From a virus (Duplodnaviria; Heunggongvirae; Uroviricota; Caudoviricetes): DNA of 64,000 nucleotides. The translations under genes and the position numbers were made by a program. The notes below the pieces were generated by a model that was not told the origin of the DNA, did not search any database, and saw nothing but the letters and a program-made list of their open reading frames with translations. Numbering within the stretch: the stretch's first letter is position 1; each line of letters opens with the position of its first letter. The stretch is taken from positions 101,573 to 165,572 of IMG/VR virus record IMGVR_UViG_3300017707_001811; one strand, 5' to 3'. Positions 10,667 through 45,533 of this stretch are shown one piece after another.

Positions 10667-10711
10667 CCTCCATTTTTTTTTAATATGATGGTATTTATTA
10701 AATAAAAGTTT

Positions 10712-11086
10712 ATGATGGATAATTCAGAAATAATTAAAAAATTAGTAGAATCACAAATACAACTAAAATTCTTACACTGGCAAACAAAATCTTATGCTAA
10801 ACACAAAGCTTATGGTGAGTTATATGAAAGTTTAGGAGAATTAATTGATGATTTTGTTGAGGCTTGTATGGGTAAACACGGAAGACCATCATACGAAGGT
10901 GGATATACCATACAGGGACAAGACATTTCTGAAATATCTGTTCAAAATTTTATCGACGGAGTTTGTATTTTCTTAATACAATTAACTGAAGTATTTGACC
11001 CACAAGAGGATTCAGACCTTTTAAATTTGAGAGATGAAATGTTACATGGGTTCAATAAATTAAAGTATCTCCTAACATTAGAATGA
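10712..11086 (+). CDS. hypothetical protein
   Basis: ORF only. Confidence 0.4.
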   Translation: MMDNSEIIKKLVESQIQLKFLHWQTKSYAKHKAYGELYESLGELIDDFVEACMGKHGRPSYEGGYTIQGQDISEISVQNFIDGVCIFLIQLTEVFDPQEDSDLLNLRDEMLHGFNKLKYLLTLE

Positions 11087-12486
11087 GAAAAATTATATCT
11101 GAATCAGGTATTAGAAATATAAGAGAGCTTTCTAACAGATATAAGAAGGCTAAAATTTATTTTCACCAAGACCTAGATGGTGTCACTACCGCAATAGCCA
11201 TGAGGGACTATTTAAAGTCAAACGGAATTGACGTGGTTGACGTGGAAGTTATTCAATATGGAGATAAGGAGTTCGCGGTTAAAAAAACTGATGCTAGAGG
11301 TGAAGTTATGCCAGTTTTAGTTGATTTTGCACATGGTAAACCAATGTTTATTATTCACACTGACCATCATGATAGACAAGCTGGTGCGGAAGAAACTGGC
11401 TCAAAATCATTTAGACAAGCAAGGTCAAACGTTGAAACCTTGTCTCAAATAATACCCAAAAGTGACTTATTTCCACCTGAAGATGTTGCCACAATATCTA
11501 TGGTTGATAGTGCTGATTATGCTAAAAGAAATATTACACCTGAGATTGTAATGAATTATATCTTTAAATTTGATAAAGATAAATCTGCGGCTGATAATAG
11601 AATGATGTTAGGATTGGTTACTAATAAATTACTTTTGGCATTTAAAAACAAAAAAGGATTTTTAGAAGAATTAGTTATGGAGTGTGAACCTTCATTAATT
11701 TCATTATTTAGAAAAATTAAAGAAATAATGAATTTAAAAGGATTTCCTTCAGAAGATGTTTTAGAAAAAAACAAAGAAATTTATGTTTCTTCCATGAAAA
11801 CACATCCTCAGGTTTCTGGTAATATCATTGTTCAGTATGGAGGTGGTAATATGATGAAACCTGGTTCGTATGATAGATATACACCATTTAGAAATAATCC
11901 TGAAGCTGATTTCTTGGTAATCGCTTGGCCTCTTGGTTTGTTACAAGCCTCTTGTAATCCATTTAAAAAAGAAAGAGAACTTAAAGGTGTTAACCTTGGT
12001 GAAATAGCTCAAGAAGTTTTATCTAAATGGGAATCACAATTAAAAGAAAAACAAATACCTTTGTCAACTATAAAGTGGGTTTCTGAGACTGCAACTAATG
12101 AAGAATCTGTTGGGTTCACATTCAAGGATTTTGCGGCAATTTATGGTGAAAAATATGTGAAAGATAAAGACGGTATTAAAAGTTTGATGGATATTAAATC
12201 TTTAATGGAAAAAAAATCATCAGATTTAACTGAAGATGAATGGACTGTTCTTGACCAATACACGGTTCCTGTTTGGGATGTTATTCAGGCTAATTCTGGA
12301 GGACACAAATGTATTACCAATATTTCAGGACTTAATTACATTGGTAGGAGTAAAAGACCACCAAAGGGTGGATATAGGTATGATGCGGAAAAAGAGGATT
12401 CTCCGTATATTAAATTTTTAAAAATGTTACAAAGAGACTTTGTTAAAAACCTTCAAGAAAAGATTGAATTATCAAAGAATCAGTAA
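11083..12486 (+). CDS. DHH-family phosphoesterase (RecJ/NrnA-like)
   Basis: Motif I YFHQDLDGVTTA and motif III IIHTDHHD. Confidence 0.6.
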   Translation: MRKIISESGIRNIRELSNRYKKAKIYFHQDLDGVTTAIAMRDYLKSNGIDVVDVEVIQYGDKEFAVKKTDARGEVMPVLVDFAHGKPMFIIHTDHHDRQAGAEETGSKSFRQARSNVETLSQIIPKSDLFPPEDVATISMVDSADYAKRNITPEIVMNYIFKFDKDKSAADNRMMLGLVTNKLLLAFKNKKGFLEELVMECEPSLISLFRKIKEIMNLKGFPSEDVLEKNKEIYVSSMKTHPQVSGNIIVQYGGGNMMKPGSYDRYTPFRNNPEADFLVIAWPLGLLQASCNPFKKERELKGVNLGEIAQEVLSKWESQLKEKQIPLSTIKWVSETATNEESVGFTFKDFAAIYGEKYVKDKDGIKSLMDIKSLMEKKSSDLTEDEWTVLDQYTVPVWDVIQANSGGHKCITNISGLNYIGRSKRPPKGGYRYDAEKEDSPYIKFLKMLQRDFVKNLQEKIELSKNQ

Positions 12487-13387: not shown

Positions 13388-13439
13388 AGTTAATGATAAA
13401 TATTTTTTTTTTAAAAAAAATCAAATATTTATTTGATAC

Positions 13440-13465
13440 TACCAATTTCTTGCCGTAAGTTTGTA
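13440..13465 (+). promoter_or_regulatory. promoter copy 1 (TAAGTTTG -7 box at 13456-13463)
   Basis: ccgTAAGTTTGtaaaagatttga, a module also present at 13660 and 13768. Confidence 0.5.
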
Positions 13466-13550
13466 AAAGATTTGACACTTATAGGTGATGAAAGATACTC
13501 GGTAGTTAAATCAAAAAGTTCTTGTTTTATTTAGAAGATTGAAAATACTT

Positions 13551-13620
13551 CACGGGTGGCTCCCTTAATAGTTAAGGCTGACCTTAAACATCCACTCTAA
13601 AGTATACAGGGGGCGAAAGT
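13551..13620 (+). repeat. conserved about 63-nt RNA-like module, copy A
   Basis: GGCTCCCTTAATAGTTAAGGCTGACC, then 25 nt, then AGGGGGCGAAAG; copy B at 27079-27142 is 23/26 identical with the same 25-nt spacing. Confidence 0.6.
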
Positions 13621-13639
13621 GAAAAAAAATATTAATTTA

Positions 13640-13671
13640 TTTGACAGATTGAAAAAAATGTCGTAAGTTTG
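13640..13671 (+). promoter_or_regulatory. promoter copy 2: TTTG/TTGACA (13640-13646), 17-20 nt spacer, TAAGTTTG (13664-13671)
   Basis: Matches both the Bacteroidetes TTTG-N19-21-TAnnTTTG and a sigma70-like TTGACA-N17-TAAGTT geometry. Confidence 0.6.
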
Positions 13672-13748
13672 TAAAAGATTTGAGATTAAGGTTCACAAAG
13701 TGGTAAAACGATGAAAGTTTCCAAATCTCAAAAAAGTTCACAAATAAC

Positions 13749-13779
13749 TTGACAAATAGAAATAAATGTCGTAAATTTG
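13749..13779 (+). promoter_or_regulatory. promoter copy 3: TTGACA (13749-13754), 17 nt spacer, TAAATTTG (13772-13779)
   Basis: Third tandem copy of the same module, about 50 nt upstream of the ORF-free RNA region. Confidence 0.6.
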
Positions 13780-13830
13780 TAAAACAATTCGGAAATGTCC
13801 GAAACGTTCTTTGAAAAAATAGATTATCCA

Positions 13831-14740
13831 TTCTCTGAGTAAGTCGTATTCCCGCCTTCGTGTGACGAATATGAGCACTGAAAAGAGATAAACGATAATG
13901 GGCCGTGTATGGTCCTTAAATAAACTACGAAAGTAGGATAAAGTGGTCTCCCCCGTGTTGAGGAGGCTGCGGTTTGAAACCCCGTAAGGGGAATTGAACT
14001 CAAGTACACAAGTGGGATATCACCACACCTTTAGTACCGAGGGTAACACTGTAGGGAAAGTGGTAGGGTGACATGGCAATGTGGATTGTCAAGTTGAGTT
14101 CGGAAGAACAATAAGAATAACCCATAGGAATCAAGTAAGAAGTATAGTCATCCAACTATATAATTGCGGATTCCAATATGATAGAATACTTAAAACCGAA
14201 AGGTAAGGTAGAGAACGAGTGGTGTCGCTACTACCCCTAAGGATGACCTACCAAGGTCGCTTTCTGAAGTAATCTAAAAATATGGAGGTGGGGACACTTC
14301 ACGGAGTAGTTTAGTATTCTGTCACTCAAAAGGAGACGGAGCTTACGGTGGACCACTACTCTGACACATCCACGACACAAAACCTATTAATTTCACTGTT
14401 AATGAAAATTTAATACTAAAAATTACAAGGAAAAGTGTCCATCAGGTTTGAGTGAAAGGTGACTACATAGTAATGAGCCGTTCATTGCACACAAAGACCC
14501 CAAGTCAATGTGTATTGTTAAGAAAGACCTTTAATCCCGCAAGGACGAACTGGGGTGGCAACCTCGGAAAGAGTTAAGTACTGATAGAGTAATTCAGACC
14601 TCAAGGAGTGGTATACCTAAAAGACCGTCACTGAGAAATACTTCTCAAAAGGAAGTGGATACGAAGGGAACTAATAATCCTTCAAAAGATTCTCAATCAA
14701 AGCTGTAATCTCAGGCTTCGTTTAACTTAAAATATTATAT
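13831..14740 (+). ncRNA. large (about 0.9 kb) structured RNA of unknown class
   Basis: No ORF of 60 aa or more on either strand; GC well above flanks; several GNRA-capped hairpins (CCCC-GTAA-GGGG at 13980, GG-GCAA-CC at 14556, CC-GAAA-GG at 14196). Three tandem promoters lie upstream and a tRNA plus an intrinsic terminator lie downstream. Confidence 0.5.
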
Positions 14741-14812
14741 TGTGGGATAGAGCAGAGGTAGCTCGAAAGGCTCATAACCTTTAGGTCGGGGGTTCGAATC
14801 CCTCTCCCGCTA
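14741..14812 (+). tRNA. tRNA-Met(CAT)-like with U1-U72 mismatch
   Basis: Acceptor TGTGGGA/TCCCGCT (6/7 bp), D stem GAGC/GCTC, anticodon arm AAAGG-CTCATAA-CCTTT, T arm GGGGG-TTCGAAT-CCCTC. Confidence 0.55.
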
Positions 14813-14844
14813 CTAAATAGAAGTAGGTTTCACCTGTCGCAGGC

Positions 14845-17884: not shown

Positions 17885-17921
17885 ATTTTGTTTTTTAATG
17901 TTATTTTTATATCTTTGTATT

Positions 17922-18617
17922 ATGAAAATAACATTTATTTCCGATACACACAACAAACATAAGCAAGTCACTAGTTTATTACCTGGTGGGGATTTAATCA
18001 TACATGCTGGAGATATATCATCCATGGGGTATATCCACGAAGTTCAACAATTCTGTAAATGGTTTGAAGGATTAGATAACTATACAACTAAAGTTTTCAT
18101 TGCTGGAAACCATGATTTTGGTTTTCAGGATATTCCTAAAGAGATTAAAGAAATTGTTGATTTTTATGATGGAGTTAATTATTTACAAGACGATTTAATA
18201 CTACTTGGTGATAACTATAGTGAAATGGTTAAAATTTATGGTACTCCATGGCAACCTGAATTCCATAATTGGGCATTTAATTTACCAAGAAATGGATGGG
18301 AACTTGAACAAAAATGGAATGATATCCCGATAAATACGGATATATTAATTACTCACGGACCAGCCCAAGGATATTTGGACACCTCAGGACCACCTTGGAA
18401 TGAGCCCTTGTTAGGTTGCGAATTACTAGTTAAGAGAATTAAAGAAATAAAACCAAAAATTCACGTTTGTGGTCATATTCACGGAGGTTATGGTTATGTC
18501 TTTGATGGTGATACTCACTTCATTAATGCATCTGTACTAAATGAAAAATATGAATTTGTTAACAAACCACTTACAGTTGAGTGGGACCCTGTGACAAATG
18601 AACTTGATTTTCTATAA
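17922..18617 (+). CDS. calcineurin-like metallophosphoesterase
   Basis: Motifs ISDTHNKH, HAGDISSMG, AGNHDF and CGHIHGG. Start moved to the ATG 4 nt after the TATCTTTG -7 box at 17910-17917. Confidence 0.75.
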   Translation: MKITFISDTHNKHKQVTSLLPGGDLIIHAGDISSMGYIHEVQQFCKWFEGLDNYTTKVFIAGNHDFGFQDIPKEIKEIVDFYDGVNYLQDDLILLGDNYSEMVKIYGTPWQPEFHNWAFNLPRNGWELEQKWNDIPINTDILITHGPAQGYLDTSGPPWNEPLLGCELLVKRIKEIKPKIHVCGHIHGGYGYVFDGDTHFINASVLNEKYEFVNKPLTVEWDPVTNELDFL

Positions 18618-18730: not shown

Positions 18731-20593
18731 ATGGGAAAAATAATAGGTATTGACTTGGGAACTACAAATTCTTGCGTAGCGGTTATGGAAGGTAGTGACC
18801 CTGTAGTAATTACAAACAGTGAAGGAAAAAGAACCACCCCTTCAATTGTCGCATTTGCTAATGGTGGTGAAAGGAAAGTTGGTGACCCTGCTAAACGACA
18901 GTCGGTTACTAACCCTGATAAAACAGTGTATTCAATTAAAAGATTTATGGGAACTAGCTTTGAAGAAAGTAAAAAAGAAGCTGGCAGAGTCCCATACAAA
19001 ATTATAAATGGTAACAATACACCTAAAGTTGAAATTGATAAAAGAAATTACTCACCACAAGAAATTTCGGCAATAGTACTCCAAAAGATGAAACAAACTG
19101 CTGAGGACTATCTTGGACAAGAAGTAACTGAGGCTGTAATTACGGTACCTGCATATTTTAATGACGCTCAAAGACAAGCGACAAAAGAAGCTGGTGAGAT
19201 TGCAGGACTTACAGTAAGAAGAATCATAAACGAACCAACTGCCGCGGCTCTTGCGTATGGTTTAGATAAGAAATCTAAAGATATGAAAGTTGTAGTATTT
19301 GACTGTGGTGGTGGTACTCATGATGTATCCGTACTTGAACTTGGAGACGGTGTATTTGAAGTACTCTCAACTGATGGAGACACTCATCTTGGTGGTGACG
19401 ACTTTGACCAAGCAATTATTGATTGGTTAGTTATGGAATTTAAAGATGAAAATGGATTGGATTTAAAACAAGACCCAATGGCACTTCAAAGACTTAGAGA
19501 AGGAGCTGAAAAGGCAAAAATTGAACTTTCATCATCACCGTCAACTGAAATTAATTTACCATATATCATGCCAGTTGATGGAATACCAAAACATTTAGTA
19601 CGTACTCTATCTCGAGCTAAATTTGAACAATTAGTTGACGAATTAGTTAAAAGAACAATTAAACCATGTGAGTCGGCTTTAAAAAATGCAGGACTTAAAG
19701 TTTCTGAAATTGATGAAATTATTTTAGTTGGAGGTACAACAAGAATTCCTGTTATTCAGGATGCGGTTAAGAAGTTCTTTGGAAAAGAACCGTCAAAAGG
19801 GGTTAACCCTGATGAAGTAGTCGCTTTAGGGGCGGCTATCCAAGGAGGAGTTTTAGCTGGTGATGTTAAAGATGTGCTACTTTTAGATGTCACACCACTA
19901 TCACTTGGTATTGAAACAATGGGTGGGGTTTTTACAAAGTTGATTGAGGCAAACACAACTATCCCAACCAAAAAGTCACAAGTATTCTCAACCGCTGTAG
20001 ATAATCAACCATCAGTTGAAATCCATGTATTACAGGGTGAAAGAGCTATGGCTAAAGACAACAGAACCATTGGTCGTTTCCATCTTGACGGATTACCACC
20101 AGCAATGAGAGGTATTCCACAGATTGAGGTAACATTTGATATTGATGCTAACGGTATTATTAATGTGTCGGCATTGGATAAAGGAACCAATAAACAACAA
20201 AATATTCGAATCGAATCTTCTTCAGGACTTTCAAAAGAAGAAATTGAAAAAATGAAAAAAGAGGCTGAAATGAATGCGGAATCTGATAAGAAAATTAAAG
20301 AAGAGACTGAAACAATTAACAAGGCAGATTCAGTAATTTTCCAAACCGAGAAGGCTTTAAAAGATTTAGAGGATAAAATTGGTGACGAAGATAAAAATAG
20401 AGTGATGGTTGCTTTGGAAGAATTAAAAACCGCACATCAGAATAGAGACGTAGAAAAGATTAATTCTTCTATTGATAATGTTAATAACATCTTTCAAGGA
20501 ATAAGTCAGAATATATATCAACAGATGTCAGACATTGTGAACGAAGATAAAGATGTTGAGGTAACCGATGTTGATTTTGAAGAAGTTAAGTAA
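18731..20593 (+). CDS. dnaK: chaperone DnaK (Hsp70)
   Basis: [14 protein letters not shown] and [12 protein letters not shown] ATPase motifs; full-length 620 aa Hsp70 architecture. Confidence 0.95.
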
Positions 20594-20650: not shown

Positions 20651-21220
20651 ATGAAGGTAATATTTTTAGACCACGATGGGGTTATTTGCTTATCAAATAA
20701 CTGGGGGTCACGATTTAAGAAACAAAAGAAATATAGAAAAAAATTGAGTCAATCAGTAATGACAATGCCTCTTGATGCTCGTTTTGATAACTTTGATAAG
20801 AAAGCGATTAAGGTGTTAAATCAAATCTTGGAACAGACTGGTGCTGAAATCGTTGTTTCTTCCGATTGGAGGATTTGGTGTTCAGTTGAGGAAATGGGTG
20901 ATTATTACGAAAGTCATGGAATTATCAAACGTCCAATTGATTTTACAGGTAATGTTATTGATGAATCAAAAGTTACATGGCACCGAAATTGGGATTTGGA
21001 AGGAACAAGGAGTTTGGAAATCCAAGGTTGGTTAAAAGAACACCCTGAGGTAACACAATGGGTAGCTATTGATGATTTGAATATGGGTAAAAAAGGTCTA
21101 CACTACTCAACGGAATTTGAACACGAATGGGGGTTAGATAATTTTGTACATACTCCTCTTAGAAATGAAGGTATAAAACAAGTTGGTATTAAAGAAAAAA
21201 TTTTATCATTTTTAAAATAA
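20651..21220 (+). CDS. HAD-superfamily hydrolase-like protein
   Basis: N-terminal FLDHDGVI (DxDG motif I). Confidence 0.4.
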   Translation: MKVIFLDHDGVICLSNNWGSRFKKQKKYRKKLSQSVMTMPLDARFDNFDKKAIKVLNQILEQTGAEIVVSSDWRIWCSVEEMGDYYESHGIIKRPIDFTGNVIDESKVTWHRNWDLEGTRSLEIQGWLKEHPEVTQWVAIDDLNMGKKGLHYSTEFEHEWGLDNFVHTPLRNEGIKQVGIKEKILSFLK

Positions 21221-22211: not shown

Positions 22212-22236
22212 GCAGGTTCGAGTCCTGTCATCCCGA
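22212..22236 (+). pseudogene. 3' fragment of a disrupted tRNA (T arm, acceptor 3' strand and discriminator)
   Basis: GCAGG-TTCGAGT-CCTGT-CATCCCG-A; CATCCCG is perfectly complementary to the CGGGATG of the 5' fragment at 21508. Confidence 0.45.
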
Positions 22237-23799: not shown

Positions 23800-23883
23800 A
23801 CGTCAGTGGCTGAACGGCTTAGGCAACGGTCTCCAAAACCGTGAACATTATGTTCTACGTAGGTTCGAATCCTACCTGGCGTG
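23800..23883 (+). tRNA. class-II (long variable arm) tRNA with apparent anticodon CCA
   Basis: Acceptor ACGTCAG/CTGGCGT, Ser-like D region, anticodon arm ACGGT-CTCCAAA-ACCGT, variable hairpin GAACA-TTA-TGTTC, T arm GTAGG-TTCGAAT-CCTAC, discriminator G. Confidence 0.5.
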
Positions 23884-23890
23884 CTAATAT

Positions 23891-24057: not shown

Positions 24058-24130
24058 GCTCCAGTAACTCAGTGGTGAGAGTGTCACTCTTATAAGGTGA
24101 AAGTCGTCAGTTCAATTCTGACCTGGAGTA
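24058..24130 (+). tRNA. tRNA-Ile(TAT)
   Basis: Acceptor GCTCCAG/CTGGAGT, D stem ACTC/GAGT, anticodon arm TCACT-CTTATAA-GGTGA, T arm GTCAG-TTCAATT-CTGAC. Confidence 0.65.
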
Positions 24131-24136
24131 CTATAT

Positions 24137-24878: not shown

Positions 24879-25274
24879 ATGTTAAAAGAAAGAATCAATG
24901 CCGACTTTATGTCCGCATTTAAAAACAAGGAAACTGAAAAGAAAAACTTTTTGGGTGTGGTTAAGGGTGAGATTCAGAATGAGGAAGGTCGCTCTGGTGT
25001 TGCTAACGATGATGTGGTTGTTGCGATTTTGAGAAAGATGGAAAAATCTTTAACTCAAACTGGAACACCTGAAGCATTAAAGGAATTGGAATATATCAAA
25101 CCATATCTTCCATCTCAAATGGGTTCAGATAAAATCCGTGAAATTATCTCAAACTATAAAACCAATGGTCTAACCAATGTCGGTCAGATTATGGGTGAGT
25201 TCAACAAGAACTTCAAAGGTCAAGCAGATAACAAAATCGTATCAGAAATCGCAAAAGAAGTTTTGGCAGGTTAA
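24879..25274 (+). CDS. GatB/YqeY-domain protein
   Basis: Co-linear with E. coli YqeY (MLKERINADFMSAFKNKE...AILRKMEKS...KPYLPSQM...NFKGQADNKIVSEIAKEVL). Confidence 0.75.
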   Translation: MLKERINADFMSAFKNKETEKKNFLGVVKGEIQNEEGRSGVANDDVVVAILRKMEKSLTQTGTPEALKELEYIKPYLPSQMGSDKIREIISNYKTNGLTNVGQIMGEFNKNFKGQADNKIVSEIAKEVLAG

Positions 25275-26439: not shown

Positions 26440-26537
26440 AGTCAGGTGGCGGAATTGGCGCCAAAGTTAAGGTGTGTTAAGGCGTGACCCGTTGAGGACC
26501 ATCCAATGACTTACAGGTTCGAATCCTGTCCTGACTT
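26440..26537 (+). ncRNA. tRNA-mimic/Y-RNA-like element copy 1 (98 nt)
   Basis: 5' AGTCAGG-TGGCGGAA...ACAGG-TTCGAAT-CCTGT-CCTGACT 3': perfect 7-bp terminal helix plus canonical T arm, but no resolvable anticodon arm. Confidence 0.5.
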
Positions 26538-26785: not shown

Positions 26786-26866
26786 AGTCAGGTGGCGGAA
26801 ATAGTATCTCTATAATATACTTGATGAGGTATGAGGTTGACTCAGTATTAGTTCCTATCCTGACTA
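26786..26866 (+). ncRNA. tRNA-mimic/Y-RNA-like element copy 2 (81 nt, no T arm)
   Basis: Same 17-nt 5' end ATAGTCAGGTGGCGGAA and 3' end CCTATCCTGACT as copy 1, with an unrelated interior. Confidence 0.4.
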
Positions 26867-27078
26867 CAATGAGTAAGAGGTACTCAGAGTCTTCGAATCA
26901 AGACTTAAAGAATGATTCCGCAGAATGTCTACGGCGTGAGTGGGACATCGTGGGATAAAGGGATAGACACATTCCCTCCCAGTAGTGTTGGATGTTTTTA
27001 ACGGGGATGCCCAGCAGGTTTTTAAGAAATAGAAAACCGATATGACTACTCATTTGTAATCTCAGGATGGGGAAAGCA

Positions 27079-27142
27079 AGGGCTCCCTTAATAGCTGTGG
27101 CTGACCACGGGCGTTGCTTGTTCCGTTATATAGGGGGCGAAG
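27079..27142 (+). repeat. conserved RNA-like module, copy B
   Basis: GGCTCCCTTAATAGCTGTGGCTGACC, then 25 nt, then AGGGGGCGAAGA; paralogous to 13551-13620. Confidence 0.6.
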
Positions 27143-27191
27143 ACGGAACTTTTTAGTAATTATTTATAGGTATTTATAAATAAAATAGAAT

Positions 27192-27880: not shown

Positions 27881-27966
27881 ACCACTGTTGTAAGTTACGT
27901 TGGAACGGACGAACAGGAGGGTGACCGATACGTAAGGTCTTTGGGGTTCAAATCCCACCAGTGGTC
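27881..27966 (+). tRNA. tRNA-like, class-II length (86 nt), anticodon unresolved
   Basis: Acceptor ACCACTG/CAGTGGT perfect and T loop TTCAAAT present; T stem only 3 bp and no clear anticodon arm. Confidence 0.35.
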
Positions 27967-28068: not shown

Positions 28069-28142
28069 GTGTCTATAGTGTTAGCGGTCTAGCACGAAGG
28101 GTTGTGGTTCCTTTAGCACCAGTTCGAATCTGGTTAGACACA
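28069..28142 (+). tRNA. tRNA-His(GTG), G-1 and CCA encoded
   Basis: Acceptor GTGTCTA/TAGACAC preceded by G, anticodon arm AAGGG-TTGTGGT-TCCTT, T arm ACCAG-TTCGAAT-CTGGT, then A-CCA. Confidence 0.75.
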
Positions 28143-31592: not shown

Positions 31593-32429
31593 ATGAACAT
31601 TTTTAAACTTGTGGTGGGAGTAATCCTTGGGATTGTGGTAATGTCAGTAATGTTTGCATCTTGTGAACGAATTGATGCGGGACACGTAGGTGTTAAAGTG
31701 AATATGTATGGTGATGGTAAGGGTGTTGATGACATCACTGAAGTAACAGGTTGGGTATTTTATAACCCTATCGGAGCTAAGATTGTAGAGTTTCCTACCT
31801 TTATGCAACACAAAGAATACACAGGTGAGGAATCATTTGTTGTAAACTCTAAAGATGGTTCTGAATTCCATGTATCACCTTTGATTAACTATTCGGTCCA
31901 ACGGGAAAAGGTACCTTACATCTATTCAAAGTATCGTGTCTCACTTGAGCAGATTCAATCAGGGTTTCTTAAAACTGCAGTATATGACGCATTTCGTTTG
32001 ACCGCAAATGCTTATACCGCCGAAGAACTCATATCTAATCGTGAAAAGTTTGAGGTTAAAGTAAGAGCTCAACTTGATTCAACACTTATTAGTGAAGGTT
32101 TCATGATTTCTCAAATGACATCAAATTTAGTTTATCCTGAGACGTTCAAAAACGCAATTGAGGCCAAGAATAATGCTGTTCAATCAGCACTTATGGCAGA
32201 AAATAAGGTTAAACAAGCCGAGGCTGAAGCTAAAATTAAAATCGCAACCGCTGAAGGTAACGCTCAAGCAATGTTGACATCGGCAAAAGCTGAAGCCGAA
32301 TCTAACCGATTGAGACAACAAACTTTAACTCCTCTTCTTCTACAACAAATGTGGATTGAGAAATGGGATGGAGCAGTTCCACAAACACAACTTGGTCAAG
32401 GTGCCAACGTTATGTACGGACTGAAATAA
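31593..32429 (+). CDS. SPFH/band-7 (stomatin/prohibitin-like) membrane protein
   Basis: N-terminal TM helix, SPFH-like core, C-terminal AEAEAKIKIATAEGNAQAML coiled coil. Confidence 0.55.
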   Translation: MNIFKLVVGVILGIVVMSVMFASCERIDAGHVGVKVNMYGDGKGVDDITEVTGWVFYNPIGAKIVEFPTFMQHKEYTGEESFVVNSKDGSEFHVSPLINYSVQREKVPYIYSKYRVSLEQIQSGFLKTAVYDAFRLTANAYTAEELISNREKFEVKVRAQLDSTLISEGFMISQMTSNLVYPETFKNAIEAKNNAVQSALMAENKVKQAEAEAKIKIATAEGNAQAMLTSAKAEAESNRLRQQTLTPLLLQQMWIEKWDGAVPQTQLGQGANVMYGLK

Positions 32430-32979: not shown

Positions 32980-33052
32980 TATTTGACAATCTATAGTTTA
33001 ATGTATATGATTGTCTTCCAATAAACAATAAATAATAAAAGACGTAGTAACT

Positions 33053-34678
33053 ATGGCTAAATTCAGAAACACAGGATTAAAAGAGAAGTTGGACTCTACA
33101 AAACCAAAGAAAAATCTCGTCGCAAAAATGTCGGTTCCTAAACCAAACACAACTAACCTACAAGGTTATGAAGCTTATGATATCGATAATTGGCTACGAC
33201 TAATCTCACTGTTAAACACATCAAAACTTCAACCACAATTTTATCGTTCAGAGAATGATACAATGCGTGAACTGAAGAAATTAATTGATGTATGTGGTAA
33301 AGAAGACCCATACTTCGCGGCACAGTGTATTGTATACTCTCGTTGTGTCGGAGAAGGTATGCGTTCAATCAACCACTTGGCGGCCGTTTACTTGGCACCA
33401 TATATGAGTGGTAAAGAATGGTCAAAACGTTTCTTCTCCGTATGGGATAAGAAAAACCAAAAAGGTGGAACGATTTTCCGTCCTGATGATATGGCAGAAA
33501 TCGTTGCGGCATATACTGCGATGAATGATAAGAGTATCACAAACGCAATGAAAAAAGGTTTCCGTGAAGCACTTGAAAAAATGGATGCTTATAGTCTGTT
33601 AAAGTACAAATCGGCAGTACTTGACATGATTAATTTGGTACATCCAGACCCAAATGAATCAAAAGCTCTTGTTGATTACATGGATAAAAAAGTACCAGCG
33701 TTCGAAGCAATCATTAAAGGGTATAATGTATCTGCGGATACTTGGGAAGTTGCACAATCTGACGCAGGTCAAATTGTTGCACAAGCGGTTCGTGAAGGTA
33801 AACTCTCAGAATCAGAAGCTAAAGAAGTATTAACTGAACAAAAGTCAGAAAACTGGAAAGGGTTATTGACTGAAGGTAAGTTGGGTATTTTGGCCGCTAT
33901 TCGAAATATGAGAAACATTCTTACCAACAAACCTGAGGCGAAAACAATTGACACTCTGTGTGATTTGGTTTCAAATCCTGAATTGATTAAAAAAGGTAAG
34001 ATTATGCCATACCAACTTGACTTGGCAAATGAAGTAATGAACTCTGAGTTTAGTGATACTAACTCAAGAAAGTTGTCAAAAGCTTTATTGACAGGTTATG
34101 AGTTGGCGGTTCCGAACCTTAAAGAACTACTTACAGGTAACAACCTTGTAATCATTGATATGTCAGGTTCTATGGACACTGAAGTACTTGACCCTAACAG
34201 AAAAACAAATTACAAGAGTACTTGTATGGATAAAGCAAGTCTAATCGGAATGACAATTGCTAAGGCGACAAATGCAGATGTTATCCGTTTCGGTTCAAGT
34301 GCTGAGTATATTACTTATAACCCTAACCAAGATGTGTTCAGTTTGGCAAAATCTATCCGTAAAGGAATGGGTGGTACAAACTTGTCACAAGCTTGGGCGA
34401 AGGCTCAAAGTTCAGGTAGAAAATACGACCGTGTTTTTATCTTGTCTGACAATGAGTGTAACATGGGTTCAACATACCGTAATTATACAAGTTATGTTGA
34501 AAAGGTTGGTGACCCATACGTATATTCAATTGACCTAGCATCTTACGGAACTACCGCAATTGCAGGACCTAAAGTAAGATACTACTACGGTTATGGATAC
34601 TCAATGTTTGATGATATCGCTAAGAGTGAGTTCAACCCAAACTATCATATTGAAAAAATCCGTAAGATTGAAATTTAA
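33053..34678 (+). CDS. rsr: Ro60/Rsr orthologue (TROVE domain plus C-terminal vWA/MIDAS)
   Basis: 541 aa. Co-linear matches to vertebrate/bacterial Ro60: N-terminal N..G..AY....L.RL..LL...FYRSE, KIMPYQLD (Ro60 RIHPFHIL), vWA DMSGSMDT, GGTNLSQAWAKAQ (Ro60 GSTDCALPMLWAQ), YDRVFILSDNECN (Ro60 ADIFIVFTDCETN), C-terminal GYGYSMFDDI (Ro60 GFDSGALDVI). Confidence 0.8.
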   Translation: MAKFRNTGLKEKLDSTKPKKNLVAKMSVPKPNTTNLQGYEAYDIDNWLRLISLLNTSKLQPQFYRSENDTMRELKKLIDVCGKEDPYFAAQCIVYSRCVGEGMRSINHLAAVYLAPYMSGKEWSKRFFSVWDKKNQKGGTIFRPDDMAEIVAAYTAMNDKSITNAMKKGFREALEKMDAYSLLKYKSAVLDMINLVHPDPNESKALVDYMDKKVPAFEAIIKGYNVSADTWEVAQSDAGQIVAQAVREGKLSESEAKEVLTEQKSENWKGLLTEGKLGILAAIRNMRNILTNKPEAKTIDTLCDLVSNPELIKKGKIMPYQLDLANEVMNSEFSDTNSRKLSKALLTGYELAVPNLKELLTGNNLVIIDMSGSMDTEVLDPNRKTNYKSTCMDKASLIGMTIAKATNADVIRFGSSAEYITYNPNQDVFSLAKSIRKGMGGTNLSQAWAKAQSSGRKYDRVFILSDNECNMGSTYRNYTSYVEKVGDPYVYSIDLASYGTTAIAGPKVRYYYGYGYSMFDDIAKSEFNPNYHIEKIRKIEI

Positions 34679-34681
34679 TAA

Positions 34682-34710
34682 ATTGGGAGGATAGCTCCTC
34701 CCAATTATTT
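34682..34710 (+). terminator. intrinsic terminator after the Ro60 gene
   Basis: TTGGGAGG-ATAG-CTCCTCCCAA followed by TTATTT. Confidence 0.7.
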
Positions 34711-34713
34711 AAC

Positions 34714-34859
34714 ACTCAGGTGGCGAAAGTGAGAACATTCTAGATAATGACTCCTGGTAGACGTAACATATGGTTATAGCAATGTGGGTTAAAAATCATC
34801 TGAACAAGATGTGGTCACTATAATGGCAGCCCGTGGAGGTTCGAATCCTTCCCTGAGTA
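34714..34859 (+). ncRNA. tRNA-mimic/Y-RNA-like element copy 3 (146 nt), immediately downstream of the Ro60 gene
   Basis: 5' ACTCAGG-TGGCGAAAG...GGAGG-TTCGAAT-CCTTC-CCTGAGT-A 3'; same GGTGGCG D-like motif and same architecture as copies 1-2. Confidence 0.55.
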
Positions 34860-35014
34860 CCAATCGTTACTATTAAGTAACAACCCAACCAAGGGCAATG
34901 CGGGTTCATACCTGCGGAGCAAGGTGACGACCAGGAAAGACTGGTATATTTATGATTATGTATAATTTTATAAAAATAGATATTTTAATAATATTTATTA
35001 TTATAACAATTATT

Positions 35015-35806
35015 ATGGGTAAAAGATTTGTCATTACTGAAGAAGAAAGAAAAGAAATAAAAAAACAACACGGTATTGCAGAAGATTGGTGGGACGATAC
35101 TGTTGAATTTCTTAAAGACACAGGTGAAAAAATAGGAGATTTTGTCTCTGATATTTTTACTGATAGTGATGAAGAGGAGAGTAAAGATGCAGAAGACCTT
35201 AAATCATCAGATTTTTCTTCAGAAGAGAAAAAAGAAATTGAGAAAAAATTAGAAGATACTAAGAAAGAATTATCTTCAAAAATAACAGACTCAAGTTTAA
35301 AAGGATTTAACTTTGATAAGATACCTGATGGTAAAAATAACTACAGGTCGGCTCAAATAACTGCTGATTTGATTCCATTGGTTATTAAAAAGTATGGTAT
35401 TAAGAGAATTATAAGATTTAATGGTGATGACGGAGACGCTAAACATGCGGGTAAACAAGGTCCGAGCATTAGTGAAGAAAAACGTATTTGTGAGAGTAAT
35501 GGATGTGAATTTTATAAATTATCATCAACTAGAAACCAAGATAAAGTTAATTCTTTATTAAAACAAGGTAATACTCTAATACATTGTGCTCACGGTGCGG
35601 ATAGAACAGGTGGTAATGTTGGTGGTTATCTATATGATATAGGATGGGGAGACACAAAAAAAATATGGGATTATACCACAAAATACAATTCATGGGAAAA
35701 TATGGTAATTAATAACCCATCTAAGTTTACAAATGGAGGTTATTTAAATCAAGCCAAAAAGTTTGGGGTCAAAGATATAGAACAAGCTAAAAAATTAAGT
35801 AAATAA
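35015..35806 (+). CDS. protein-tyrosine/dual-specificity phosphatase-like protein with a conserved N-terminal module
   Basis: CX5R motif IHCAHGADRTG; N-terminus MGKRFVITEEERKEIKKQHGIAEDWWDDTVEFLKD is paralogous to the N-termini of 52966..53841(-) and 41335..42642(-). Start set to the internal Met. Confidence 0.55.
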   Translation: MGKRFVITEEERKEIKKQHGIAEDWWDDTVEFLKDTGEKIGDFVSDIFTDSDEEESKDAEDLKSSDFSSEEKKEIEKKLEDTKKELSSKITDSSLKGFNFDKIPDGKNNYRSAQITADLIPLVIKKYGIKRIIRFNGDDGDAKHAGKQGPSISEEKRICESNGCEFYKLSSTRNQDKVNSLLKQGNTLIHCAHGADRTGGNVGGYLYDIGWGDTKKIWDYTTKYNSWENMVINNPSKFTNGGYLNQAKKFGVKDIEQAKKLSK

Positions 35807-35831
35807 ATTTTGTATCATAGTTATTTTACCA

Positions 35832-35839
35832 TATCTTTG
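35832..35839 (+). promoter_or_regulatory. TATCTTTG -7 box 4 nt before the ATG at 35844
   Basis: One of eight genes with this exact geometry. Confidence 0.5.
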
Positions 35840-35843
35840 TGGT

Positions 35844-36326
35844 ATGAATAACGAAATCAAATACAAACCAACAAAAGAGGCGATTATTGGATATAGTGAT
35901 TCTAAAATTGCCCAAAGCGAAACAAACGATTGTGTTGTTAGAGCAATTGCGTCGGCTTTTGAAATGCATTATGATGAGGCACACGACTTTGTTGCAAGTA
36001 ATTGGTTTCGTAGAAATCGTGAGGGAACAAGAAACTTCATTGGAGGTATGCGTAGTATGGTCGACAAAGGAGTTTTAATTAACGGTAAATCATTTTCCAA
36101 TTTGGGTGACCAACATGGTCATATGAAATATGACGTTAAAGTTAAAGGTCAAATTGTTAAACGTAATATGACCACAGGAACTTTTATCAAAAAATTCCCA
36201 AAAGGTCGATACGTTGTGGTTGTTCGTGGACATGCTTTCTCAATCATTGACGGAGTTGTTGTTGGTAATACAGGTGATGCTAAAATGAAGAAGCGTGTTA
36301 TTTTGTATTCTTGGAGAGTTTTATAA
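35844..36326 (+). CDS. hypothetical protein
   Basis: ORF only. Confidence 0.4.
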   Translation: MNNEIKYKPTKEAIIGYSDSKIAQSETNDCVVRAIASAFEMHYDEAHDFVASNWFRRNREGTRNFIGGMRSMVDKGVLINGKSFSNLGDQHGHMKYDVKVKGQIVKRNMTTGTFIKKFPKGRYVVVVRGHAFSIIDGVVVGNTGDAKMKKRVILYSWRVL

Positions 36327-36366
36327 TAAAAATAAGATTTTACTTGACAAGAGTATATTTATAACT

Positions 36367-36415
36367 TACCTTTGTCAAACAATTCAGTAAAGACTGAAAC
36401 GTTCTTTGAAAAATT
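36367..36415 (+). promoter_or_regulatory. tRNA-cluster promoter (TACCTTTG -7 box) plus shared motif gaaacgttctttgaaaaa
   Basis: TACCTTTG at 36367-36374; the 18-mer GAAACGTTCTTTGAAAAA (36397-36414) recurs at 13801-13818 just upstream of the large RNA. Confidence 0.5.
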
Positions 36416-36427
36416 AAAAAAATTGAC

Positions 36428-36452
36428 GTAGTAAGAATAGAGTTACTTCGCA
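36428..36452 (+). repeat. hairpin repeat R1 (AGTAA-N8-TTACT-TCG)
   Basis: gtagtaagaatagagttacttcgca, followed by a T-arm-like minihelix ATTGG-TTCGAAT-CCAAT. Confidence 0.55.
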
Positions 36453-36575
36453 TATTGGTTCGAATCCAATATTTGCCGCAATTTTGGCAGATTAGACAAA
36501 TGGATAAGTCGACGGTCTCATAAACTGTTATAGAAAAACAACCTCTACTCGTTTTCTCGTCATAAAATATTGATT

Positions 36576-36602
36576 GATAGTAATAGATAAGGTTACTTCG
36601 TA
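36576..36602 (+). repeat. hairpin repeat R2
   Basis: gatagtaatagataaggttacttcgta; ends at the 5' end of the following tRNA. Confidence 0.55.
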
Positions 36603-36671
36603 AAATAGCTCAATTGGATGAGCATTTGTATCAGGAACAAAAGGATACGGGTTCAACTCCCGTTTTTACAA
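36599..36671 (+). tRNA. class-I tRNA with anticodon CAG (Leu by anticodon) and C1-A72 mismatch, CCA encoded
   Basis: Acceptor CGTAAAA/TTTTACA, D stem GCTC/GAGC, anticodon arm TTTGT-ATCAGGA-ACAAA, 5-nt variable loop, T arm ACGGG-TTCAACT-CCCGT, then A-CCA. Confidence 0.45.
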
Positions 36672-36714
36672 CCAAAAAAACCTTCCTAACTTTCTTCAAT
36701 CAAACTTATTATCA

Positions 36715-36740
36715 GATAGTGAAGAGACAGTTACTTCAAA
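36715..36740 (+). repeat. hairpin repeat R3
   Basis: gatagtgaagagacagttacttcaaa (AGTGA/TTACT with a compensatory G-U); followed by a degenerate tRNA-like segment with T arm TCGGG-TTCGAAT-CCCGA (36721-36788). Confidence 0.5.
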
Positions 36741-36847
36741 TTTTTCTGGAACAAAAAAGGCTCGGGTTCGAATCCCGACTCCTCTTCGGGGGATGTGGTG
36801 TAGCGGTAGCACTAGATAACACTGTTTCTATTTTCTTCTGATTAAAC

Positions 36848-36931
36848 GCCGAGGTGATGAAAAGGTAGACATGACAGACTTAAAATCTGTTGGGCAGTTC
36901 GCCCGTGCGGGTTCGAATCCCGCCCTCGGTA
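36848..36931 (+). tRNA. tRNA-Leu(TAA)
   Basis: Acceptor GCCGAGG/CCTCGGT, D stem ATG/CAT, anticodon arm ACAGA-CTTAAAA-TCTGT, variable hairpin GGGC-AGTTC-GCCC, T arm GCGGG-TTCGAAT-CCCGC. Confidence 0.75.
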
Positions 36932-36940
36932 CTAAAACAA

Positions 36941-37015
36941 GCCTCCATAGCTCAGCAGGTTTAGAGCGACTGATTTGTAATCAGTAGGTCGTTGGTTCGA
37001 TTCCGACTGGAGGCT
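36941..37015 (+). tRNA. tRNA-Thr(TGT)
   Basis: Acceptor GCCTCCA/TGGAGGC, anticodon arm ACTGA-TTTGTAA-TCAGT, T arm GTTGG-TTCGATT-CCGAC. Confidence 0.8.
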
Positions 37016-37026
37016 CTAATATATAT

Positions 37027-37101
37027 GCTCGGTTCGTCTAGACTGGTCTAGGACACTACCCTTTCACGGTATAAACACGGGTTCGAATCCCGTACCGAGT
37101 A
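37027..37101 (+). tRNA. tRNA-Glu(TTC)
   Basis: GTCT-AGACTGGTCTA-GGAC D arm, anticodon loop CTTTCAC, T arm ACGGG-TTCGAAT-CCCGT; resembles E. coli tRNA-Glu. Confidence 0.75.
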
Positions 37102-37107
37102 CTAAAT

Positions 37108-37137
37108 GAAGTAGTAAGGATAAGAGTTACTTCGCAA
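37108..37137 (+). repeat. hairpin repeat R4
   Basis: gaagtagtaaggataagagttacttcgca. Confidence 0.55.
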
Positions 37138-37195
37138 ATTACTTTTAATGATTCAAGCAAAAACAAACTCTTTCCAACGTTCTCTTCATTAATTT

Positions 37196-43667: not shown

Positions 43668-43742
43668 GAAGAAGTAGCTCAGACGGTAGAGCATAGGGTT
43701 AGAAATCCCTTGTGCCGCGAGGTTCGATTCCCGCCTTCTTCA
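43668..43742 (+). tRNA. tRNA with irregular anticodon arm (4-bp stem with 8-nt loop TTAGAAAT, or 3-bp stem with anticodon AGA) and a bulged T stem
   Basis: Acceptor GAAGAAG/CTTCTTC perfect, D stem GCTC/GAGC, T loop TTCGATT, discriminator A. Confidence 0.45.
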
Positions 43743-44680: not shown

Positions 44681-45061
44681 ATGAATAATAAATTTAATAT
44701 TGCGGTTATTGCTCACGATAACAAGAAAGCGGATATGGTTGCATTTATTATGAAAAGATTAGAGTTTTTTAAAAATGTTAATATATTTGCAACAGGAACC
44801 ACAGGTAAACACATTGAATTTGCAGGATGTTACGTTAGTAAGATGAAGTCTGGACCAATGGGAGGAGATGCTCAAATTGCATCAATGATTGTTGACGGTA
44901 AAATTGATTATGTTATATTTTTTATTGACCCATTATCTTCTCATCCACACGAAGTTGATGTGCAAATGTTATTAAGAATATGTAATGTTACAGATACTCC
45001 AATTGCAACTAATTACTCAACTGCAAAAATGGTTGTTGAGTATTGTGAAAATAAAAAATAA
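44681..45061 (+). CDS. mgsA: methylglyoxal synthase (MGS-like domain)
   Basis: IAVIAHDNKK...ATGTTG...GPMGGDAQIASMIVDGKIDYVIFFIDPLSSHPHEVDVQMLLRICNV...IATN is co-linear with E. coli MgsA. Confidence 0.8.
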   Translation: MNNKFNIAVIAHDNKKADMVAFIMKRLEFFKNVNIFATGTTGKHIEFAGCYVSKMKSGPMGGDAQIASMIVDGKIDYVIFFIDPLSSHPHEVDVQMLLRICNVTDTPIATNYSTAKMVVEYCENKK

Positions 45062-45077
45062 TTTATATATTTGTAAA

Positions 45078-45533
45078 ATGAAATACAATATATACTTAGA
45101 TGATGTTCGTACCCCAAAAGATAAAAATTGGGTAGTTGTACGAAATTATGATGAATTTGTTAATAGAGTTACTGAAATAGGTTTAAATAATATTGATACT
45201 ATTTCTTTGGACCATGACCTTGGAGATACTGCAATGAATGAATATTTCAACAATGTAAGCCCAAACTACACTTTAAACTATGAGAATATTAAAGAAAAAA
45301 CTGGTTTGGATTGTGCTAAATGGTTGGTTAATTATTTCTATGATACTAATCCTGAGTGGATTGAAATGAATAGAATAGTTAAGAGAGCCGATAAAATAAA
45401 CTTTCCTCAGGTTTATACTCATTCTGCAAATCCGATTGGTTCTGCAAATATTATGGGTTACATAAATAATTTTTTAATGAATGAAGCTCAAACTCAGACA
45501 TGTGTTAGGGTTCAAATTCCACATAACGTATGA
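45078..45533 (+). CDS. hypothetical protein
   Basis: Start 4 nt after the TATATTTG box (45066-45073). Confidence 0.4.
   Translation: MKYNIYLDDVRTPKDKNWVVVRNYDEFVNRVTEIGLNNIDTISLDHDLGDTAMNEYFNNVSPNYTLNYENIKEKTGLDCAKWLVNYFYDTNPEWIEMNRIVKRADKINFPQVYTHSANPIGSANIMGYINNFLMNEAQTQTCVRVQIPHNV

Follow-up and report, generated by a model that had tools for sequence, protein, structure and literature searches.

Conservation of Ro60–Y RNA particles extends from bacteria to humans, and there is still debate on the rules by which their RNA is recognised. The bacterial Y RNA YrlA (RF02553) is composed of T, AS and D stem-loops together with a 5' GNCGAAN0-1G motif, and its gene and that of Ro60 share a strand and are at most 4 kb apart (Chen et al. 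2014, PMC4201824). Phage Ro60–Y RNA complexes have already been published (PMC4201824, PMC12135203), with 22 phages carrying them in the PMC4201824 study, and the Ro60 of Thermus phage phiLo binds both its Yrls and the host PNPase (PMC12135203; PDB 9L5Y, 9KOP). Here we compare these systems with a locus in a 64,000-nucleotide stretch of a Caudoviricetes virus (IMG/VR record IMGVR_UViG_3300017707_001811, positions 101,573 to 165,572), called the window below, in which all positions are counted from its first letter. The window encodes a Ro60 homologue of 541 aa, a tRNA-like element of 146 nt starting at 34714, and a cluster of four Y-like RNAs at 36424-37190 (Table 1). A preliminary description of the locus had proposed the 34714 element as the Y RNA partner of the adjacent Ro60. 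We consider it more probable, at roughly 60%, that the locus is a phage Ro60 ribonucleoprotein of which the RNA partners are the RNAs at 36424-37190, the 34714 element being an independent, non-decoding tRNA mimic. That a Ro60–Y RNA type of system is encoded here, as had been proposed, is very probable; the conserved RNAs lie outside the coordinates given for it earlier, at 36424-37190.

The locus resembles YrlA systems in that several genes for small RNAs accompany Ro60 on its strand at distances of up to 4 kb, the window's Y-like RNAs lying 1.7-2.5 kb downstream. Each of these RNAs has a terminal stem and three also have a tRNA-like domain; in RNAs a and c, as well as in an RNA of phage csAssE-Sib, inspection gives the YrlA order of T arm, capped acceptor hairpin and D arm. 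There are also differences. The stem signature consists of a bulged U, AG/CU, UUYCU and UACUUCG instead of GNCGAAN0-1G, and the family scores 16-28 bits on the Rfam YrlA model as compared to 44-56 bits for control RNAs from Gordonia and Xanthomonas phages. Furthermore, the presumed effector module can also be in normal order, have a second permutation point or be absent, and phage crAss001 shows an inverted topology in which a tRNA scaffold harbours the Y stem. The arrangement is also like that of phiLo, the closest solved relative of the protein, where a phage Ro60 is accompanied by the adjacent small RNAs Yrl1 and Yrl2, but the phiLo Yrls carry CGAA in an internal bulge (PMC12135203), unlike the window RNAs.

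Sequence comparison indicates that the 541-aa open reading frame (ORF) is a genuine but divergent Ro60 ring protein. In Pfam searches TROVE (PF05731) is found with 25.9 bits (E=7e-6; cut-off 23), and vWA_Ro60 and VWA_2 both score 24.4 bits, just under the gathering score of 27.7 and the cut-off of 27, respectively; NCBIfam has no matching model. The top match in a phmmer search of the PDB is phiLo Ro60 (9L5Y/9KOP; E=9e-11), in a long but weak alignment over residues 23-508, and human and Xenopus Ro60 come next (E 3-6e-4). The DMSGSM, GGT and SDNE sequences line up with the MIDAS residues of phiLo Ro60. The segments on which the preliminary description had based its assignment as a TROVE plus vWA orthologue (KYDRVFILSDNECN, GGTNLSQAWAKAQ, KIMPYQLD and GYGYSMFDDI) are all present in the ORF, and the profile check that it proposed supports the assignment as regards TROVE. 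Close relatives were not found in bacterial genomes. Homologues were detected by tblastn in 89 phage records and many of these, including crAss001 and other Bacteroides phages, are annotated as 'Ro-like RNA binding protein' or 'TROVE domain-containing protein'. In view of the TROVE score, the similarity to phiLo and the 89 phage records, the identification as Ro60 is right and such a gene is not unusual for a phage; with phage complexes already in print (PMC4201824, PMC12135203), the rarity that was attributed to the locus is overstated.

The Y-like RNAs share a stem that starts with a basal helix of 4-12 bp formed by the two ends and continues with a bulged U, an AG pairing with CU, a short internal loop with UUYCU in its 3' strand, and a second helix. 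Next comes the junction, where (U)UACUUCG of the 5' strand faces an A-rich ..ACA(C) in the 3' strand. What the stem encloses is a short loop or a tRNA-like domain, which can be in normal order or circularly permuted. The sequence GTTACTTCG is present in the window solely at 36442, 36592, 36730 (with one mismatch) and 37126. A covariance model of the Ro60-linked stem, R1, retrieves 40 members across related loci. Among 30 distinct members, 96.2% of the cells are paired as compared to 63% in shuffled sequences and 43-54% when the partner is slid, and double changes occur at 16 of 17 pairs. Because this alignment was fitted to the model, the independent result obtained with RNAalifold is the one that counts: unguided folding of nine short members recovered the stem, with compensatory changes in 15 of 17 pairs. 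When run with filters off, R1 detected nothing else significant in the 64-kb window, including the tRNA arrays at 22-28 kb. The possibility that the stems are inverted repeats resembling miniature inverted-repeat transposable elements was rejected, since the stems covary rather than being conserved and their two strands carry different asymmetric motifs.

Orthologues of the individual RNAs occur in related phages. For RNA a, R1 matched orthologues in three loci (L004 4490-4626, L002 3729-3873 and L001 4907-5050), and the orthologue of RNA c in L005 (3244-3378) scores 39.2 bits. RNA c also gives a weak match to Rfam YrlA over 36757-36813 (15.9 bits). The core of RNA b is called 'tRNA-Leu(cag)' by ARAGORN (36599-36674), but it is unlikely to be a working tRNA, judging from its combination of a class-I body with a Leu anticodon and from orthologues that keep the body and have CAG, UAG, GUG or UUG as 'anticodon'.

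The association with Ro60 was examined in Ro60-relative loci, two of which were fetched from IMG/VR and fifteen from metagenomes. In every related locus with enough flank, with Ro60 proteins that are 52-97% identical, Y-like members are found within about 2.5 kb of Ro60. The association extends to the 635-kb megaphage LR745206, where a member scoring 49.8 bits with R1 lies beside a Ro60 of 33% identity, and to the phages cr111_1 (48 bits), csAssE-Sib (35 bits) and crAss001 (28 bits). In csAssE-Sib the family stems enclose the 'tRNA-Tyr' and 'tRNA-Lys' of the GenBank record (L135 3607-3720 and 3753-3880), and in cr111_1 the annotated 'tRNA-Gln' (L136 2856-2987) is enclosed. These annotated tRNAs beside Ro60 are probably domains of Y-like RNAs and not free-standing tRNAs. 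Phage crAss001, which can be cultured with Bacteroides intestinalis, has the RNA family at about 96,200-97,800 of MH675552. In this phage (L137) the TROVE gene gp96, described only as an early gene of which the role is unknown (PMC8375218), is followed by an 'empty' gap of 900 nt that holds at least four unannotated RNAs (5339-5422, ~5424-5510, 5516-5659 and 5771-5912), two being simple Y-like stems and two having a tRNA scaffold. In one of the latter the Y stem is loop-closed at its basal end.

Controls with the two models gave opposite results in other phages. In Gordonia phage Neville and Xanthomonas phage 10KY502B the YrlA model detects Y RNAs next to Ro60 with 44-56 bits (E<=6e-7), below the curated 69 yet clearly significant, whereas R1 gave no matches around Ro60 in Gordonia, Xanthomonas, Thermus (phiLo) and Vibrio phages. 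Taken together, the Y-like family looks like what takes the place of Y RNAs in a Ro60 clade of Bacteroidota phages, similar to YrlA in overall plan and distinct in the signature of its terminal stem. A CHU_C/T9SS domain and the crAss-like relatives point to a Bacteroidota host for the phage studied here. No paper was found in the literature that links crAss-like phages to Y RNAs, and neither the Y-like family nor the scaffold family to which the 34714 element belongs was found described in Rfam or the searchable literature.

The primary features of the 34714 element are as noted in the preliminary description. The acceptor strand ACTCAGG (34714-34720) has a perfect complement in CCTGAGT (34852-34858), the T arm reads GGAGG-TTCGAAT-CCTTC (34835-34851) and a D-like TGGCG directly follows the 5' acceptor strand (34721-34725). 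A discriminator A and CCA are encoded (34859-34862). The D stem (34723-25/34762-64) carries a D-loop insertion of 26 nt (34729-54) that has no counterpart in homologues. The anticodon arm (34766-85) is lengthened and has a 7-nt loop (34773-79) with UAU at 34775-77, and the variable arm (34786-34832, ~47 nt) is branched into hairpin 1 (34797-34811) and hairpin 2 (34814-27), the latter with the loop CUAUAA (34818-23). In a MAFFT alignment the element matches the phage's own tRNA-Leu genes, with insertions. Default ARAGORN does not call it, and no Rfam family, including RF00005 and YrlA, matched the region 34600-35000 even at E<=10, so that the Y-RNA model search suggested earlier is negative. 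An intron-containing tRNA and a tmRNA were considered and rejected: the relaxed ARAGORN model gives only a sub-threshold 'tRNA-Val with 61-nt intron', and the tmRNA search was negative. A 24-mer that covers the acceptor strand and T arm occurs nowhere else in the window (0 expected), and exact-pattern scans of viral and bacterial genome collections for this 3' sequence gave no hits.

The element belongs to a larger family of RNAs. R2, a covariance model of the AGTCAGG-type Leu-like scaffold comprising acceptor, D stem and T arm, matches it over the full model length with 37.7 bits (E ~1e-7); its best match outside the family is the window's tRNA-Leu(UAA) (40.8 bits). With the two paralogues at 26440-26537 and 26786-26866 there are three copies of the tRNA-mimicking element, as previously stated, and similar genes are present in relatives (L004 406-508, L006 577-707). 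A scan of IMG/VR for AGTCAGGTGGCGGAA yielded at least 120 loci (L157-L276), from which 97 distinct elements of 69-195 nt were obtained, with up to five copies per contig (e.g. L167). Their acceptor stem, D arm and T arm are near-invariant. The centres of 20-140 nt are completely different and hypervariable, some having compensatory changes between close relatives. ARAGORN calls a tRNA in 19 of the 97, with scattered anticodons. There is no recurring neighbour gene; the commonest cluster occurs in 8 of the at least 120 listed loci. Motif inspection found UACUUCR together with UUYCU in none of the 97 centres, nor in the element.

The centre of the 34714 element itself defines a subfamily. A short-word BLAST search with this centre led to L190, and patterns derived from it gave 22 loci and then 7 more. 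The 29 loci contain 22 distinct homologues (17 + 5) that share the centre and are marked by a AUGGUUAUAGCA loop. The RNAalifold consensus of the homologues is a cloverleaf with 13 covarying pairs, so the proposed covariation check has a positive outcome. Covariation is found in the acceptor stem at pairs 1, 2 and 6 and at two pairs of the T arm, and the D loop tolerates optional hairpin insertions of 20-30 nt. The anticodon arm consists of four strongly covarying pairs, a bulged A, two pairs and the 7-nt loop G-U-UAU-A-G. The variable arm has a GGG/CCC closure, an A-rich strand, a hairpin 1 of variable sequence in which pairing is kept with covariation, and an invariant hairpin GUCA-CUAUAA-UGGC. 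The CUAUAA loop of the latter is complementary to UUAUAG of the anticodon loop. In 16 sequences, G occurs with C in 13 and A with U in three, mixed combinations being absent; one sequence has an A-to-G change by which a U-G wobble is kept. This supports a predicted kissing interaction of the anticodon loop with the CUAUAA loop. As compared to the commonest family sequence, the window copy has pair-preserving double changes in both the acceptor stem and the T stem. On this comparative evidence the 34714 element is a conserved, structured RNA gene of a family that shows no Ro60 link.

Comparison with known RNAs places the element closest to class-II tRNA. Like tRNA-Leu (RF00005), the family keeps a 7-bp acceptor, U8-G9, a 3-bp D stem with a GAAUUGGUAGA-type loop, a UUCGAAU T arm, the discriminator A and a GGG/CCC-closed variable arm. 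Unlike tRNA-Leu, the anticodon stem is lengthened and bulged, the variable arm consists of two hairpins of ~47 nt, the D loop has optional hairpins, and the anticodon loop is predicted to pair with an internal loop. An ordinary class-II tRNA with an anticodon arm was the alternative against which the preliminary description had set its Y-RNA proposal; the derivation from class II and the presence of an anticodon arm agree with that alternative, but the RNA is anything but ordinary. The retention of acceptor and T arm, by which tRNA enzymes can take hold, with replacement of the remainder is reminiscent of the tRNA-like domain of tmRNA and of the 3' tRNA-like structures of plant viruses. However, the element differs from tmRNA in having no reading frame or G3-U70, and from the plant-virus 3' ends in being a free-standing gene of a DNA phage with a full cloverleaf instead of a pseudoknotted acceptor.

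Several observations weigh against the assignment of the four Y-like RNAs to Ro60 and of the element to a separate role. The connection between Ro60 and the Y-like RNAs is one of co-location and architectural analogy. The best YrlA scores of the window's Y-like RNAs are 16.3 and 15.9 bits (E ~3) as compared to the curated 69, and even the csAssE-Sib orthologue reaches only 28.5 bits (E=0.029). The GNCGAAN0-1G or CGAA motif that marks other bacterial and phage Y RNAs is missing from the family. One locus, L253, has three R1-type motifs (10486-11420) and no Ro60 homologue in the 14 kb that were fetched; a Ro60 gene may lie beyond this flank, or the locus may be an exception to the linkage. In the crAss001 scaffold RNAs, which are 142-144 nt long, the ends form a 7-bp acceptor beside a T arm and the Y stem replaces the anticodon arm. 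A Ro60 ligand built on a tRNA scaffold is therefore possible in principle, and the 34714 element matches these RNAs in gross topology and has UAGCAAUG in common with some Y stems. With regard to the structure of the element, single-sequence folding gives an energy no better than that of shuffled sequences (z = 0.14 to 0.44), and the covariation of the kissing loops probably reflects a single evolutionary event, the three A/U sequences forming one clade of which the sister, L277, has G/C.

In view of the above, four alternative explanations can be considered. The first, which we regard as unlikely, is that the stems at 36424-37190 are leader-trailer structures for the processing or stabilisation of pre-tRNAs and are near Ro60 only via a shared region of tRNA and early genes. 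The Y-like RNAs are scattered among ordinary tRNA genes within tRNA gene arrays and their stems surround tRNA-like sequences, which makes a role in the processing of pre-tRNAs possible. GenBank calls the embedded domains of csAssE-Sib (Tyr, Lys) and cr111_1 (Gln) tRNAs, and RNA b has a full 7-bp acceptor stem from which RNase P could release a tRNA. On the other hand, there are members that have no tRNA-like domain, permuted domains cannot yield a tRNA, and the tRNA arrays at 22-28 kb have no such stems. Furthermore, the 'anticodon' shifts among orthologues of one body, Leu anticodons occur in class-I bodies, and the co-location with Ro60 persists across very distant phages.

The second alternative is the original proposal that the 34714 element itself is a YrlA-type Y RNA that binds the adjacent Ro60. 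The element starts 35 nt downstream of the Ro60 gene on the same strand, after a weak hairpin, and co-transcription is plausible. The T-tract of this hairpin is on the minus-strand side, so on the plus strand it would be a leaky terminator at best and read-through from the Ro60 gene is plausible. The terminal stem is formed by the two ends, there is a T arm, and GGCGAAAG at 34722-34729, right after the 5' strand, fits the GNCGAAN0-1G motif (PMC4201824). The scaffolded Y-stem RNAs that lie beside Ro60 in crAss001 have the same size and topology. However, GGCGAAAG corresponds to a Leu-type D arm, and in most homologues this position is taken by GGCGGAAU. R1 scores the element with 11.2 bits (E=8.8), below membership, and the near-invariant UACUUCR, UUYCU and AG/CU are missing. 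Furthermore, the element is absent from the relatives L004, L005 and L016 of ~94% nucleotide identity, in which homology stops at 34692 and restarts at 36397, with ~325 nt in place of the window's 1.7 kb. More distant relatives also have no element and instead carry RNAs with the GTTACTTCG motif directly after Ro60. The position of the element beside Ro60 in this strain is the result of a cassette replacement, as the comparison of these relatives indicates. In the fetched stretches of 120 + 32 + 7 scaffold and subfamily loci (the scaffold listing holding at least 120 loci in 1.06 Mb), tblastn found no Ro60 gene, and R1 found no Y-like stems in the eight subfamily loci searched. At least eight samples contain contigs coding for exactly the same Ro60 or PTP-like protein; these have the window arrangement with an element that is 100% identical and are hence uninformative. 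The element is thus probably not a Ro60 partner, and we consider the original proposal improbable.

According to the third alternative, the element works as a decoding tRNA that has expansions and, for example, is charged by LeuRS or IleRS and reads AUA with its UAU. In favour of this, the consensus cloverleaf combines a canonical 7-nt loop (U33, UAU, purine 37) with a T arm, discriminator A and CCA, and the scaffold sequence is strongly conserved. Bacterial LeuRS charges its tRNA without reading the anticodon. A decoding function is nevertheless very doubtful. The anticodon stem has 6 pairs and a bulge instead of 5 pairs, the variable arm of ~47 nt is branched, the D loop accommodates long insertions, and the complementarity of the anticodon loop to an internal loop comes with a compensatory change. 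The element is missed by both ARAGORN and the Rfam tRNA model, a normal tRNA-Ile(UAU) is already present in the window (24058-24131), and the wider scaffold family has no consistent anticodon in its centre. The fourth explanation, a functionless, decaying tRNA-Leu pseudogene or a recombination scar, would fit the position of the element exactly at the left edge of the strain-specific replacement, its fold energy and its unmatched D-loop insertion, but is highly improbable since the centre is kept in at least 22 unrelated contigs, its loops being invariant and four helices showing compensatory changes, and the double changes of the window copy preserve pairs of the acceptor and T stems.

The reading that we prefer, with the Y-like RNAs as partners of Ro60 and the element as a separate mimic, suggests the following mechanism. 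The four RNAs at 36424-37190 would be the probable Ro60 partners. As all known Y RNAs have a bulged terminal helix, the stem may by analogy be the module to which Ro60 binds, and the apical part could then be an exchangeable effector module, which is absent in one RNA and tRNA-like in three, in normal order in one and permuted in two. This module might recruit or decoy host factors that bind tRNA or degrade RNA early in infection. The Ro60–Y RNA–PNPase complexes known in Deinococcus and phiLo provide precedents (PMC4201824, PMC12135203). The element, with its acceptor, T arm and encoded ACCA, would be a plausible substrate for tRNA end processing, and its anticodon loop with UAU is predicted to be sequestered by kissing with the AUA-containing loop of the variable arm. 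The lengthened anticodon stem and the predicted masking of the loop are the basis for regarding the element as a non-decoding tRNA mimic, which could act as a decoy or regulator. A more far-reaching combined possibility, which is rather unlikely, is that the element represents an undescribed class of 'self-masked' tRNAs with a kissed UAU and a Leu-type body that LeuRS could charge regardless of the anticodon, and that Bacteroidota phages, among them crAss-like phages from the human gut, use a hitherto unrecognised modular Y-RNA family as ligands of an early Ro60. If true, a self-masked tRNA could be a switchable decoder that misreads AUA, or a bait for host anticodon nucleases and tRNA-modifying enzymes.

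Table 1. Features at and around the Ro60 locus (positions in the window; R1 and R2, covariance models of the Y-like stem and of the scaffold).
Feature	Position	Strand	Remarks
Paralogue A of scaffold family, AGTCAGG...CCTGACT, different centre	26440..26537	+	67.9 bits; within R2 training set
Paralogue B of scaffold family, same acceptor, degenerate T arm	26786..26866	+	R2 30.9 bits
Sigma-70-like promoter match TTGACA-17-TATGAT, upstream of Ro60 gene	32983..33011	+	11/12 consensus positions
Ro60 (TROVE + vWA/MIDAS) homologue, 541 aa	33053..34678	+	Pfam and phmmer homology
11-bp hairpin directly after Ro60 stop codon, possible weak or bidirectional terminator	34681..34706	+	T-tract on minus-strand side only
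Strain-specific 1.7-kb replacement (element, PTP-like ORF, 160-aa ORF)	34693..36396	.	comparison with L004, L005, L016
146-nt element, derived class-II (Leu-like) tRNA-like RNA	34714..34862 with CCA	+	R2 model, homologues, RNAalifold
160-aa ORF	35844-36326		second gene of two-ORF cassette
GTTCTTTGAA box upstream of Y-like RNA cluster, candidate promoter element	36401..36410	+	also before clusters in L001, L002, L004, L015
Y-like RNA a: stem around permuted tRNA-like domain (T arm, capped acceptor hairpin, D arm, anticodon-like arm)	36424..36562	+	
Y-like RNA b: stem around normal-order tRNA-like domain	36570..36703	+	R1 31.5 bits
Y-like RNA c: UACUUCA-variant stem; anticodon-like arm, T arm, capped acceptor hairpin, D arm (permuted)	36711..36842	+	18.9 bits
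Y-like RNA d: stem, short apical region, no tRNA-like domain	37105..37190	+	R1 72.7 bits, E ~7e-13

Around the Ro60 gene, promoter-like matches are in total no more frequent than in shuffled sequence, and the match listed in Table 1 is to be taken as a consensus match only. The replacement that brought in the element also contains a PTP-like ORF (34952-35806) with a weak Y_phosphatase3 match and the motif HCAHGADRTG. The same two-ORF cassette, with a Cys-based phosphatase-like protein and a 160-aa protein, is found without the element in L152, a 64%-identical relative, and moves as a two-gene unit between phage contexts. The phosphatase-like family has 278 relatives in metagenomes at E<=1e-5; in IMG/VR, which was searched in order to find the element beside them, the PTP-like ORF has no close relatives. 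An SPFH/Band-7 gene lies near Ro60 both in the window (31593-32429) and in crAss001 (L137 7514-8731), and this neighbourhood may be conserved.

The genomic context that the preliminary description had outlined, with a very large tRNA complement, tRNA-repair enzymes and a Bacteroidetes-type phage, is confirmed in part, there being 23-24 tRNA genes in the 64-kb window, domains of RNA-repair type and pointers to Bacteroidota. Around the tRNA region we observed genes for HAD_SAK_2 ('Swiss Army Knife' RNA repair), a metallophosphoesterase, cREC_REC (cyclic-phosphate processing receiver), a YqeY-like protein and a full-length Hsp70/DnaK (20651-21217, 17898-18614, 44985-45530, 24879-25271 and 18731-20590, respectively). 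One of the tRNAs, an 85-nt 'tRNA-Trp(cca)', has a long extra arm (23800-23884); two tRNAs are called by Rfam and missed by ARAGORN (28069-28142 and 43668-43742), and T-arm sequences occur outside called tRNAs (22212-22228 and 27945-27955). A complete match to the Rfam GOLLD RNA is present at 14302-14717 (316.8 bits, E=7e-90) directly upstream of tRNA-Met (14741-14813). It probably reaches upstream to ~13820, and the region 13390-14740 has no long ORF.

Two further RNA-like features were noted. A motif of ~75 nt, GGCUCCCUUAAUAG..GGCUGACC...UAUAYAGGGGGCGAA, occurs at ~13551-13622 and ~27075-27146 and also in at least two other phage contigs, L044 and L105; it has a promoter-like box upstream and no Rfam match. 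Its 3' end contains the 16-mer CAGGNGGCGAAAGTGA, which is also found at the start of the 34714 element. As a lead, this 16-mer, shared by the element and position 13607, was rejected, as it has ~116 matches in IMG/VR, about chance level and mostly coding; a few of these (L044, L045, L050 and L105) belong to another conserved RNA. The model of archaeal-type RNase P RNA matches weakly, along its entire length, within the tRNA cluster of a related 172-kb phage contig (L001 5845-6027; 35.6 bits, gathering score 84, E=4.7e-7), and the matching segment could be a reduced, RNase P-like RNA of the phage.

The interest of the locus lies in its two RNA families and not in the phage Ro60 as such. The Y-like family provides a natural series of variants for examining what Ro60 recognises and what the tRNA-like module recruits, with a module that is lacking, tRNA-like or permuted in two ways, or with a tRNA scaffold into which the stem is built. 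Through this family, such RNAs are now placed in crAss-like phages, which are among the most abundant human gut viruses. For annotation, the family means that several 'tRNA genes' beside phage Ro60 in public genomes are probably domains of Y-like RNAs. The scaffold family is very widespread, with at least 120 IMG/VR loci for one variant, and is missed by standard tRNA and Rfam tools. Should its RNAs act on the host tRNA machinery as decoys or regulators, they would be part of how tRNA-rich phages counter tRNA-targeting defences.

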